A stretch of DNA of 64,000 nucleotides, from NCBI RefSeq assembly GCF_058153355.1, contig NZ_JBLWLY010000002.1. One strand, given 5' to 3'. Shown piece by piece: positions 60,651 through 63,442 of the stretch (positions within the stretch are counted from its first letter, which is position 1; each line of letters opens with the position of its first letter). The DNA comes from a plasmid. The translations under genes and the position numbers were made by a program. The notes beneath the pieces are model-generated. The model made no database searches. It had not been told where the DNA came from and saw nothing but the letters and a program-made list of their open reading frames with translations.

Positions 60651-60821
60651 ATGACGAAATATGCCCTTATCGGGTTGCTCGCCGTGTGTGCCACGGTGTT
60701 GTGTTTTTCACTGATATTCAGGGAACGGTTATGTGAACTGAATATTCACAGGGGAAATACAGTGGTGCAGGTAACTCTGGCCTACGAGTGCGACAAGAAG
60801 TCGTCCAACATATTGTTTTGA
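60651..60821 (+). CDS. srnB: Hok-family toxin SrnB, 3' end interrupted by a group II intron after codon 45
   Basis: MTKYALIGLLAVCATVLCFSLIFRERLCELNIHRGNTVVQVTLAYE then non-native tail; joining to 63147 gives ..AYEARK-stop. Confidence 0.75.
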   Translation: MTKYALIGLLAVCATVLCFSLIFRERLCELNIHRGNTVVQVTLAYECDKKSSNILF

Positions 60822-63146
60822 TAAATTATTTATATAAAACCAACTATTCCATTAGTTGTAGCCTACTGAGGCAGGCAAAGCTGGTAACGGCTCTGTCTGA
60901 AGCCCTTGGGACAATGTAGCTTAGCAAATATTGCTTCAGTTAATCGTGAGAAAACCTGATCGCTACAAGCATCATGCGGCGAGAGCGCTAGGCTGGGCGG
61001 TATGGTTAACATAGTGAACTGTCGTTAAACGTCGTAACAGAGAACGAGCCAAAGATGCTGATAGGCTTGCACCAAAAGGTAAGGGGTAAGGCTATTCCTG
61101 TTCGTAGTGGGAATACATGGACAATAACTCCCCCGGCGGATAGACAGAACCTAACCCGTTCTTTGTATGTTGGTCGGAACTTGGTAAGCCCGAATTCTCG
61201 CCCTAGTGGCAGGGGCACCGTAAGGCAAACTGATGAGAATGCGGGTAAAGGAGGATGGAAAAAGCGAAAGCCGGACTGTAATCGTGCGGATAGAGGTTCA
61301 ATATTTGCCTTAACGGGAAACCGTGCTGACTTCCATCTGGTCTTTAATTGCGAAACATCTGCGAAGGTTTCTTTGGATGACATGTATGAAAATTACATCT
61401 AACAATGTAACTGCGGTCATCAACGGAAAAGGTTGGCATTCCATTAACTGGAAGAAATGCCATCAACACGTTAAAACCATACAGACAAGAATCGCAAAGG
61501 CGGCATGTAACCAGCAATGGCGTACAGTCGGTAGATTGCAACGATTGCTGGTTCGCTCATTCAGCGCCAGAGCACTGGCGGTGAAACGAGTTACGGAAAA
61601 TAGCGGGCGTAAAACCCCCGGAGTTGATGGTCAAATCTGGAGTACTCCAGAATCAAAATGGGAAGCGATATTCAAACTCAGGCGAAAAGGGTACAAGCCC
61701 CTACCGCTAAAAAGAGTTTTTATACCCAAATCTAATGGCAAGAAAAGACCATTAGGAATCCCCGTCATGCTTGACAGGGCAATGCAGGCCCTGCATCTGC
61801 TGGGATTGGAGCCTGTATCGGAAACTAATGCAGATCACAACAGTTATGGTTTCAGACCAGCGCGATGTACGGCTGACGCCATTCAACAGGTATGTAATAT
61901 GTATAGTTCCCGGAACGCCTCGAAATGGGTTCTGGAAGGCGATATTAAAGGATGCTTTGAACACATTAGCCACGAGTGGCTGCTTGAAAATATTCCTATG
62001 GACAAGCAAATACTCCGTAATTGGTTGAAAGCCGGGATCATCGAAAAAAGCATATTCAGCAAAACTCTCTCGGGTACACCCCAGGGAGGAATCATATCTC
62101 CAGTTCTGGCAAACATGGCCCTGGATGGACTGGAAAGACTGCTGCAAAATCGCTTTGGTCCGAAACGCTCAAAAACATTCAGGAAACATCAGGTTCACTT
62201 CGTCCGGTATGCTGATGATTTCATCATTTCCGGAAAGTCGAAAGAACTTCTGGAGGAGAATGTTCTTCCGTTGGTGAAATCATTTCTTGCAGAAAGAGGG
62301 CTGACGTTATCCGAAGAGAAAACGGTCATCACTCACATTACTGACGGATTTGATTTCCTTGGGCAGCACGTCCGACGCTTCGGTAGAAAACTCATAATCA
62401 GACCAGCCAAGAAAAACGTTAAACAATTTCTTAGCAAGATCAGAGAGACTATTGAAGGTAACCGAACGGTTCCTGCATGGGTGCTAATAAATCTGCTTAA
62501 TCCAATCATCACCGGGTGGGCAAACTATCACCAACATGTAGCATCGGCAGAGACATTTAACTATGTCGACAACCAAATCTGGCGCAAAATCTGGCAGTGG
62601 TGCAGAAGGAGACATCCCGGCAAAGGCCGGAGATGGATCTTCCGAAAGTACCACACGACAATAAAAATGTGTCATGGTCGATTTTATGGAGTCGATCCGG
62701 AGGGTAGGAAATATGTTCTGTCCCGGGCCAGCGACATCCATATTAATCGCTATATAAAAATAAAGGGAACGGCAAATCCATATGATCCCGAGTGGGAAAC
62801 ATACTTCGAAAGAAGGCTGGACTACTCATGGAAGAAATCCCAACAGGGGCAGAAAAGGATTCTCGCTATATGGAAAAGGCAAGGATCGCGCTGCCCTTTA
62901 TGTGAGCAACCGATTAATCGCGATACAGGATGGAATGTTCATCATTTGCTCAAGAAATCTCTTGGCGGTAGCGATGATGTGAGCAATTTAGTCCTACTCC
63001 ATCCCAACTGCCATCGACAACTACATAGTAATGACGCTGGTCTCCCACAAGGTGGAGGCTTATAAAGGCTTGAGCGGTATGCGGGGAAACTCGCACGTAC
63101 CGTTCTTAGGGGGCGGCGAGACAGTAATGAATCGCTGCTACCCGAC
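60788..63146 (+). mobile_element. Group II intron (about 2.36 kb) encoding RT/maturase/HNH protein
   Basis: Starts GTGCG, ends AC; domain V-like GAGCGGTATGCGGGGAAACTCGCACGTACCGTTC at 63072..63105; candidate EBS1 TCGTAG at 61102. Confidence 0.7.
61386..63065 (+). CDS. Group II intron-encoded protein (reverse transcriptase, maturase, HNH endonuclease)
   Basis: YADD motif; GWANYH maturase motif; C-terminal HNH. Confidence 0.9.
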   Translation: MKITSNNVTAVINGKGWHSINWKKCHQHVKTIQTRIAKAACNQQWRTVGRLQRLLVRSFSARALAVKRVTENSGRKTPGVDGQIWSTPESKWEAIFKLRRKGYKPLPLKRVFIPKSNGKKRPLGIPVMLDRAMQALHLLGLEPVSETNADHNSYGFRPARCTADAIQQVCNMYSSRNASKWVLEGDIKGCFEHISHEWLLENIPMDKQILRNWLKAGIIEKSIFSKTLSGTPQGGIISPVLANMALDGLERLLQNRFGPKRSKTFRKHQVHFVRYADDFIISGKSKELLEENVLPLVKSFLAERGLTLSEEKTVITHITDGFDFLGQHVRRFGRKLIIRPAKKNVKQFLSKIRETIEGNRTVPAWVLINLLNPIITGWANYHQHVASAETFNYVDNQIWRKIWQWCRRRHPGKGRRWIFRKYHTTIKMCHGRFYGVDPEGRKYVLSRASDIHINRYIKIKGTANPYDPEWETYFERRLDYSWKKSQQGQKRILAIWKRQGSRCPLCEQPINRDTGWNVHHLLKKSLGGSDDVSNLVLLHPNCHRQLHSNDAGLPQGGGL

Positions 63147-63442
63147 AGCACGGAAGTAAGCTGCCGGGCGGGGACGGAAGTCCCCGCTTTCCGGAAGTGT
63201 GAGGTATTTCAGGGGCAGACACCCGACATGCCAGAAACAGCCGGTCCCGTCCGGGGCCGGCACCCAGGTTCAGGCATTTCCAGCTTTTCAGTCATTTCAT
63301 TATCAAAATCACATTAAACGGCCGTAATCAGACATGATTTGTGCGCCAACACAGATCTTCGTCACAATTCTCAAGTCGCTGATTTCAAAAAACTGTAGTA
63401 TCCTCTGCGAAACGATCCCTGTTTGAGTATTGAGGAGGCGAG

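Follow-up and report, generated by a model that had tools for sequence, protein, structure and literature searches.

A group II intron in the srnB gene

We analysed a 64,000-nucleotide stretch of plasmid DNA (RefSeq assembly GCF_058153355.1, contig NZ_JBLWLY010000002.1; hereafter, the window) that carries srnB, a type I toxin gene of the hok family, interrupted close to its 3' end by a group II intron. The srnB open reading frame (ORF) starts at 60651 and runs normally up to ...GCC TAC GA (60787), where it passes into GTGCGAC (from 60788). The inserted DNA ends with ...CTACCCGAC at 63146 and is followed by the missing end of the gene, AGCACGGAAGTAA, at 63147-63159. The insertion splits the codon of Glu-46 into GA and A, 10 nt ahead of the srnB stop codon, and both of its ends satisfy the boundary consensus GUGYG ... 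AY (GTGCG at 60788, AC at 63145-63146). Joining 60787 to 63147 yields GAA GCA CGG AAG TAA and a protein of 49 residues, MTKYALIGLLAVCATVLCFSLIFRERLCELNIHRGNTVVQVTLAYEARK, ending in ...LAYEARK. An initial annotation of this DNA, made from the letters alone, had proposed a group II intron inside srnB with exactly these limits and this spliced product, and both proposals are borne out by the sequence and by the comparisons described below.

The limits of the intron were set by alignment with an uninterrupted srnB. When the joined exons (60400-60787 plus 63147-63400) were compared with the uninterrupted allele of CP099216 (L006), 628 of 641 positions were identical, the CTACGA/AGCACG junction (slashes mark the insertion point in such strings) was reproduced without gap, duplication or deletion, and the two toxins differed by one residue (L10I). 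Uninterrupted alleles end in ...AYEARK and agree with the joined exons at the junction; this junction (120 nt) is found uninterrupted in 1963 of 5426 complete E. coli genomes. An Rfam scan with E-values, covering positions 58000-64000, detected the ribozyme itself: group-II-D1D4-7 (RF02012) matched over its full model length (112.5 bits against a gathering score of 34, E 6.9e-24), and Intron_gpII (RF00029, domains V and VI) matched at 63070-63146 over the full model 1-77 (65.5 bits, gathering score 40), terminating exactly on the proposed last intron base. Thus, the ends given by the covariance models fall within the srnB ORF, at the proposed splice sites, and the presence of a group II intron in srnB is far beyond chance.

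The intron-encoded protein (IEP) matches the Pfam families RVT_N (7.8e-32), RVT_1 (2e-40), GIIM (3.2e-23) and HNH (8.1e-10), contains a YADD motif and scores 369.5 bits against TIGR04416, the curated NCBIfam model of group II reverse transcriptases/maturases (cut-off 300). Its best relative of solved structure is the T.el4h/Th.e.I3 reverse transcriptase (6ME0; E 2.4e-187, 627 bits); other solved enzymes gave 138 bits (LtrA) and 104-131 bits (IIC enzymes). Ll.LtrB, the intron that encodes LtrA, is a IIA intron with a mitochondrial-like IEP, and the distant LtrA match fits this. These similarity scores suggest a chloroplast-like (CL1-like) protein and a ribozyme of the IIB1 type. T.el4h of Thermosynechococcus and EcI5 of the E. 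coli plasmid pO157 are IIB1 introns with CL1 enzymes (PMC8643678), and their IEPs have the same set of RVT_N, reverse transcriptase, maturase and HNH domains. The ratio of nonsynonymous to synonymous substitution rates (dN/dS) of the IEP is 0.08-0.09 between the Escherichia and the Salmonella/Citrobacter subclades (dS ~1.5) and 0.14-0.15 inside the Escherichia clade, values that point to purifying selection and a long functional history.

Further parts of the ribozyme are in place as well (Table 1). A consensus fold of six intron copies (RNAalifold) contained 12 base pairs with compensatory changes. In domain VI, U63139 and A63140 are unpaired, the latter lying 7 nt from the 3' splice site.

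Table 1. Features of the interrupted srnB locus (window coordinates).
Feature	Position	Strand	Basis or remark
Promoter-like site for srnB mRNA: TAGTCA, 16 nt spacer, TG-TATTAT	60472-60499	+	consensus scan; putative function
srnB mRNA leader 5' end GGGUGUCUG, tac-like	60506-60514	+	pairs with 63216-63224 in predicted spliced-mRNA fold
hok/sok-type leader, antisense SrnC target region	60506-60661	+	Rfam RF01794 'sok', 88.8 bits, gathering score 59
Short leader ORF MKFLAVLIVASSLQRGQSL, stop overlapping srnB start (ATGA)	60596-60654	+	sequence, ORF list
Promoter-like site for antisense RNA (SrnC/Sok-like): TTGACC, 18 nt spacer, TACAAT	60616-60645	-	consensus scan, 10/12; putative function
srnB exon 1, codons 1-45 and GA of codon 46	60651-60787	+	sequence; alignment to uninterrupted allele
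Intron-binding site 2 (IBS2) CTCTG, exon positions -13 to -9	60775-60779	+	5/5 Watson-Crick with EBS2 CAGAG; covaries across hok-gene copies
Intron-binding site 1 (IBS1) CTACGA, exon positions -6 to -1	60782-60787	+	6/6 Watson-Crick with EBS1
Group II intron, 2359 nt	60788-63146	+	5' GTGCG ... 3' AC; uninterrupted srnB alignment; Rfam matches
In-frame TGA ending unspliced ORF	60819-60821	+	same bases in every aligned intron copy
Part of ribozyme domain I	60840-60987	+	RF02012
Exon-binding site 2 (EBS2) CAGAG, intron positions 251-255	61038-61042	+	assigned by homology with three related introns
Exon-binding site 1 (EBS1) TCGTAG, intron positions 315-320	61102-61107	+	terminal loop closed by ATTCC/GGAAT
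Exon-binding site 3 (EBS3), U in GGAUAGACAG	61141	+	partner of first exon 2 base; IBS3 = A63147
IEP, 559 aa (562 aa from ATG at 61377)	61386-63065	+	reverse transcriptase, maturase, HNH endonuclease
Domain V, GAGCGGUAUGCGGGGAAACUCGCACGUACCGUUC, AGC triad and GAAA loop	63072-63105	+	RF00029 alignment
Domain VI, bulged branch-point A at 63140	63108-63144	+	RF00029 alignment
srnB exon 2, A of codon 46, Ala-Arg-Lys and stop	63147-63159	+	sequence; alignment
fbi-like fold-back element CAGACACCC, 3' untranslated part	63216-63224	+	pairs with 60506-60514 in predicted fold
3' terminal hairpin of srnB mRNA GCCGGTCCCGTCCGGGGCCGGC	63240-63261	+	predicted in all three folds

The two exons belong to a complete toxin locus. 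The spliced product matches the whole Pfam HOK_GEF model (PF01848, E 2.3e-9, 1-42/42) and stays under the curated NCBIfam Hok cut-offs (32.9 versus 73), as expected of the divergent SrnB branch. The putative srnB promoter lies directly upstream of the start of the Rfam hok/sok-leader match (60506). The leader and the 3' untranslated part contain counterparts of the tac and fbi elements of hok mRNAs, whose fold-back holds the mRNA inert until its 3' end is trimmed (PMC3851714). The 9-bp pairing between them was predicted in the minimum free energy fold of the in-silico spliced mRNA with each of three 3' ends tried; a simple terminator scan made no call at the 3' terminal hairpin. In the precursor the fold-back partners are 2359 nt further apart, and synthesis of the 3' partner has to wait until the intron has been transcribed in full. 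Splicing would therefore restore not only the last three codons but also the regulatory geometry of the srnB mRNA. The window exons, with their predicted antisense RNA and fold-back, form a locus of the same kind as hok/sok (R1), srnB/srnC (F) and pnd (R483), the difference being that here the toxin ORF and its mRNA are split by 2359 nt of intron.

Several smaller observations concern the leader. RF01794, a model of the 'sok antitoxin', matches the plus strand, that is, the srnB mRNA leader, and the antisense promoter-like site is on the minus strand; the model seems to represent this region as such, not the strand from which the antisense RNA comes. The short leader ORF MKFLAVLIVASSLQRGQSL is also present in the uninterrupted allele of L006 and is thus an allelic variant unconnected with the intron. 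In L001, the allele of E. albertii, srnB and the reading frame upstream of it share one phase (MKYLNTTDCSLFLAERSKF-MTKY...).

Upstream of srnB lie an hha homologue (59535-59744) and an ORF of 196 residues, and downstream the RepA2/CopB replication regulator (63443-63700) and the CopA RNA; this gene order is the usual place of srnB in IncFII plasmids. Rfam matches to AS-pc02 (58681-58864, minus strand, 178.8 bits), AS-traI (54651-54727, minus strand, 105.9 bits) and CopA (63827-63916, minus strand, 95.7 bits) are ordinary antisense RNAs of the IncF backbone and confirm a plasmid context that runs from the end of tra through srnB to the RepFII replicon. No second hok-type site was found in the window.

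Exon recognition and its retuning between toxin genes

The sites of exon recognition were located by aligning the window intron with three plasmid introns (L012, L014 and L015; alignment A3), whose IEPs are ~60% identical to that of the window and whose exons are unlike. The initial annotation had noticed a hexamer TCGTAG, about 315 nt into the intron, complementary to the last six bases of exon 1. In the three relatives the equivalent loop reads GCGCAC (L014, exon GTGCGC), GCTTCC (L015, exon GGAAGC) and GGTCCC (L012, exon GGGGCC), each complementing its own exon, which fixes EBS1 at this hexamer. The EBS2 segment, ~60 nt upstream of EBS1, likewise complements each relative's own -13 to -9 bases. 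In the loop GGA-N-AGACAG the EBS3 column holds T where A follows the intron (window, L003 and L012) and G where C follows (L014 and L015), a covariation seen in five sequences and two states only. The pairing covariation places recognition of the 3' exon in an EBS3-IBS3 contact within the internal loop of subdomain ID, not in a delta-delta' contact. EcI5 has the same layout, with EBS1/IBS1 at -1 to -6, EBS2/IBS2 to -13 and EBS3/IBS3 at +1 (PMC8643678).

Another EBS2 candidate, GCCAAAG (~61047-61053, pairing with TGGC at -10 to -7), was considered first and dropped: it is near-invariant in relatives with unrelated exons and belongs to a covarying stem (AGCC/GGCT, GGCC/GGCC, GGTC/GACC).

Comparison of copies residing in different toxin genes revealed that the exon-binding sites follow their targets. 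In srnB-resident copies (window, L001, L007, L034-L039) the EBS2/IBS2 pair is CAGAG/CTCTG and the EBS1/IBS1 pair TCGTAG/CTACGA. In copies resident in R1-type hok (L009, L040-L047) these are CATGA/TCATG (CGTGA in three copies, with one wobble) and TCGTAA/TTACGA, and in the widespread Salmonella copies (L029-L033) CATAA/TTATG and TCGTAG/TTACGA (one G-T pair). All of these pairs are Watson-Crick except for the two wobbles, and most copies with the exon TTACGA have TCGTAA as EBS1. The window intron and the R1-hok intron differ at 66 of 2359 positions, among them 253, 254, 255 and 320; these face the four differences between the srnB and R1 hok targets (-13, -12, -11 and -6), and each is complementary to its own target. 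A rough binomial estimate of chance for just three such changes is 1e-4. Since EBS-IBS pairing is needed for both splicing and reverse splicing, this covariation is evidence of selection as a working intron at srnB, as opposed to mere deposition in the gene. Read from the bases of the binding sites, it is a natural retargeting between paralogous sites that has given rise to three specificity variants.

Distribution of the intron lineage

When 72,556 plasmids were searched by megablast with the region, about twenty records proved to hold the intron (77-99% nucleotide identity), and in nearly all of them a Hok family toxin is annotated beside it. Junctions were extracted from these plasmid loci and from further assembly and metagenome loci. 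Within hok-family genes the insertion is invariably at ..GCY TAC GA/A.., in the Glu codon of the conserved (M/L)AYE motif, and the element at this codon in other loci measures 2357-2363 nt, or 1383 nt in one internally deleted copy. The lineage, at 76-99% protein identity, occupies the same codon of at least five hok-family genes on plasmids of Escherichia, Salmonella, Citrobacter, Enterobacter and Klebsiella: srnB adjoining the IncFII replicon (spliced C-terminus AYEARK), R1-type hok adjoining psiA or parM/stb (AYESGK), a hok variant adjoining psiA (AYESGGK), the hok genes of Salmonella and Citrobacter, with a 5'-truncated remnant in Klebsiella (AYESAK), and an Enterobacter hok (AYESGK). A CAATG-type hok and further metagenomic variants are also among the hosts. 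In-silico splicing gave full-length Hok toxins throughout, of 49-53 residues, or 61 when counted from the furthest upstream in-frame ATG.

Only two ectopic insertions were found (L011 and L028), both at ATGGCTT(T/A)CGA, a near-copy of the target. The srnB and R1 hok genes are 51% identical at the DNA level, and their shared TGGCYTACGAA contains the second-longest run of identity between them, which explains how one intron can use both. To judge from the junctions, the lineage is confined almost wholly to hok-family toxin genes, a homing niche that has gone unremarked. Outside the hok lineage, no intron protein of E. coli-type plasmids was more than ~61% identical to the IEP; one genome per species from 100,044 species gave no relative above 61% identity, and viral contigs gave no match.

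The element has moved within this niche. Copies 97-99.6% identical to each other reside in more than one hok-family gene and more than one srnB allele, as well as at the two ectopic sites. The introns of the window and of L007 are 99.6% identical (10 differences), whereas their srnB flanks differ at 23 of 450 positions (~5%); near-identical introns in diverged alleles point to recent transfer between alleles. Among the 5426 complete E. coli genomes, only two carry the intron, both times in hok and not in srnB, and a third record holds only a 38-nt fragment. Identity with EcI5 was considered and rejected, given this rarity, whereas pO157 is common.

Several loci deserve separate mention. Enterobacter sp. 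JBIWA005 has two co-resident plasmids (1 and 2; L005 and L010) with the intron in hok, and they agree in the hok gene, the N-terminally truncated IEP ORF (426 aa) and the flanking genes; the pair looks like a duplication of a leading-region segment, not independent homing. In K. pneumoniae NZ_CP031796.1 (L008, ~3501-4673) a 5'-truncated remnant encoding only the maturase-HNH part still precedes a hok 3' exon (ATCCGCTAAGTAG); hok exon 1 has apparently been lost together with the intron's 5' half. The nearest outgroup introns, which were used for alignment (L012, 1397-3743 in CP033467; L014, 1401-3743 in NC_013507; L015, 1379-3729 in CP091399) also lie in F-type leading regions, adjoining ssb, hok and antirestriction genes. 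They sit in GC-rich intergenic DNA, oriented against the genes around them, and home to other sites (5' exons ..GCCGAAGGGGGCC/ and ..GCCGAAGGTGCGC/). In L040 (1-343, GCA_021065825.1) a second, unrelated group II intron protein (RVT_1, Intron_maturas2 and an AI2M-like HNH) is encoded just upstream of ssb, in a leading region that also bears the intron in hok. Introns thus seem to gather in F-type leading regions.

Splicing, decay and the fate of the toxin

We consider it very probable that a canonical mobile group II intron entered srnB of an IncFII-type plasmid by retrohoming, in sense orientation, that its splicing restores the toxin, and that the lineage has been retuned to each paralogue. 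The srnB promoter would transcribe exon 1, intron and exon 2 as a single RNA, and the IEP, translated from domain IV, would aid folding of the ribozyme. With EBS1, EBS2 and EBS3 paired to exon bases -6 to -1, -13 to -9 and +1, the bulged A63140 would attack the 5' splice site and the exons would be ligated. Ligation would regenerate an srnB mRNA whose 49-residue ORF ends in AYEARK and whose 5' leader and 3' fold-back stand at their normal spacing, and the excised lariat-protein particle could reverse-splice into intron-less TGGCYTACGA/A copies. This stretch is among the most conserved of the hok family, which would explain why toxin genes of the hok, flm and srnB types are almost the only home of the lineage. 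That the window copy splices in vivo, with what efficiency and with what effect on post-segregational killing, we infer from sequence.

Several observations weigh against this picture. Six assembly contexts encode exactly the same unspliced product as the window, and in five of them the IEP gene is broken. Four independent IEP lesions are found among the close srnB-resident relatives: an insertion of 1 nt at intron position 1311 (L034 and L035), a deletion of 1 nt at 1389 (L036), an insertion of 2 nt at 1654 (L037, which apart from this differs from the window by one substitution) and an internal deletion of 976 nt (L038). In CP057208 (L007), the closest complete plasmid, the IEP is intact and srnB exon 1 is frameshifted by a T5-to-T4 change. 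An srnB gene with the intron is absent from all 5426 complete E. coli RefSeq genomes, 1963 of which have the empty site. Finally, IIB1 introns form a Watson-Crick EBS2a-IBS2a pair at target position -14 (PMC8643678), for which the alignments examined gave no convincing candidate: srnB has A at this position, most hok targets have T, and none of the bases immediately 5' of EBS2 can pair with the two in a consistent way. The window intron differs from EcI5 and T.el4h in belonging to another lineage and in homing within hok-family ORFs.

Taken at face value, the lesions, the frameshift and the missing filled allele would suit a simple knock-out, in which the intron splices poorly or not at all, srnB is decaying, the plasmid leans on its other maintenance systems, and the intron is a selfish passenger, harmless there since a silent toxin gene carries no cost. 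The four lesions occur among eight srnB-resident contexts, against 2 of 21 hok-resident copies broken: a full-length IEP is encoded in 14 of 16 E. coli hok-resident contexts and in all five Salmonella ones, so that integrity is 4/8 versus 19/21 (Fisher p = 0.03; the samples are phylogenetically non-independent and the difference is suggestive only). The absence of filled srnB from complete genomes implies that homing into this gene is infrequent or short-lived, and, given the IEP lesions and the exon 1 frameshift, the srnB sublineage shows no evident sign that a working toxin made by splicing is selected for. Group II introns are also known to reduce expression of their host genes, as Ll.LtrB can do to the relaxase gene (PMC6003770, PMC7293003). 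Yet every part tested is intact in the window copy (IEP ORF, YADD motif, HNH domain, domain V, branch-point A and all three exon-binding sites), and its exons and regulatory elements are no less intact than those of uninterrupted alleles, with 8 differences in 450 nt and the ORF kept. Moreover, EBS bases of the srnB sublineage fit the srnB exon, which implies selection for pairing in splicing, homing or both. We therefore regard a plain knock-out as possible but rather unlikely; the srnB sublineage has the look of a secondary host range, with frequent decay of the element and perhaps no strong selection on the toxin.

Two of these loci are worth describing. In L038 (3638-5020, GCA_017318465.1) the clean 976-nt deletion removes most of the reverse transcriptase, and in the remaining element of 1383 nt the two ends and the EBS sites are intact; by its structure it is a naturally ORF-reduced derivative that could splice only with help in trans. 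In L007 (CP057208.1, with its twin CP057205.1) the frameshift, at the equivalent of window positions 60700-60704, leads to MTKYALIGLLAVCATVLCFH followed by a stop, and the Prokaryotic Genome Annotation Pipeline (PGAP) calls no Hok coding sequence; the change reflects either genuine decay or an error in a homopolymer.

An unspliced message would also encode a protein. Its ORF (60651-60821) extends 34 nt into the intron and specifies 56 residues ending in ...LAYECDKKSSNILF. The initial annotation had expected an altered tail of 13 residues; the altered tail exists, but it consists of 10 intron-encoded residues, CDKKSSNILF, in place of ARK, and the count of 13 is reached only by including the shared AYE. 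This read-through product (...LAYE-CDKKSSNILF) might itself be the working toxin, which would make toxin production independent of splicing. Its transmembrane segment and most of its periplasmic part are unaltered, the last three residues of Hok are variable in any case (ARK, SGK, SAK, SGGK), the NCBIfam Hok models score both forms nearly equally, and every copy has kept the tail CDKKS(S/F)NILF with the in-frame stop that lies 34 nt inside the intron. However, ribozyme constraint on the first 34 bases of the intron, which do not vary even in company with a diverged ORF, explains the conservation of the tail. Ribosomes entering a group II intron are expected to disturb folding of the ribozyme. 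A working read-through toxin thus seems to us quite improbable, and the protein presumably differs from SrnB in activity.

A further possibility goes beyond restoration of the toxin by splicing and makes the intron a functional layer of plasmid addiction or competition; we hold this to be improbable. If it were true, the intron could gate the toxin, and killing after plasmid loss would need the maturase or pre-spliced mRNA; it could act as a second antitoxin, the excised intron particle re-attacking the long-lived ligated hok mRNA, much as Ll.LtrB does with ligated mRNA (PMC6003770); or it could disarm rivals, an intron-bearing plasmid homing into the hok/srnB addiction modules of its competitors.

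The literature searched contains no report of an intron in a hok-family gene, although a catalogue name may exist in the specialised Zimmerly group II intron database, which was beyond the scope of our search. Papers in which both an intron and such a gene are named concern other introns, at other places of the plasmid. An intron of F33:A-:B- plasmids, which carry srnBC, has a different insertion, downstream of ycjA, and neither E.c.I11 of pEC958 nor the intron of pGUE-NDM is described as lying inside hok. The closest analogy is Ll.LtrB in the ltrB relaxase gene of the Lactococcus plasmid pRS01, likewise in sense orientation within a functional gene of a conjugative plasmid whose product needs splicing; in srnB, unlike there, the host is a type I toxin mRNA controlled by 5'-3' pairing across the insertion point. 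Toxin genes are also entered by other elements. The IStron CdISt1 in tcdA of Clostridioides difficile, a group I ribozyme fused to an insertion sequence (IS), splices out without a reverse transcriptase, so that the toxin is still made, and IS elements, which do not splice, inactivate chromosomal hok loci of E. coli K-12. The window element differs from both in being a group II intron with a lineage-wide specificity for one codon position of a toxin family.

For toxin-antitoxin biology, srnB would be a type I toxin that, together with the long-range mRNA fold controlling it, is reconstituted only by RNA splicing. Intact and degenerating copies side by side offer a compact example of the cycle of invasion and decay. 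The intron is also a candidate gene-targeting vector, since it appears to be a IIB1 intron native to E. coli, endonuclease-proficient by its domains and with defined targets. The mechanism itself is textbook; what lifts the case above the ordinary is the one-codon toxin niche, the series of retargeted EBS variants and the scale of silent mis-annotation.

Annotation pipelines call ltrA, not the split toxin. Products ending in CDKKS(S/F)NILF are filed as "Hok/Gef family protein" or "type I toxin-antitoxin system Hok family toxin". The exact 56-residue form of the window is present on 33 contigs and the same tail in at least five other srnB alleles; several 59-residue hok forms occur on 4-38 contigs each, and one Salmonella form (P0058) is listed in 4111 assembly-index blocks. 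When 27 loci encoding four such proteins were fetched, the intron followed the gene in every one, and at none of them did an intact toxin naturally bear the tail. At these loci the entries are therefore read-through annotations, the true C-terminus of the toxin being encoded ~2.36 kb downstream; public databases hold many Hok/Gef entries with such a tail. Proteins of 61-74 residues (P0012-P0024) that share a 90% cluster with Hok read-through products, some of them on hundreds of contigs, are named 'single-stranded DNA-binding protein', which is probably a propagated misannotation of ORFs of the hok/mok region.

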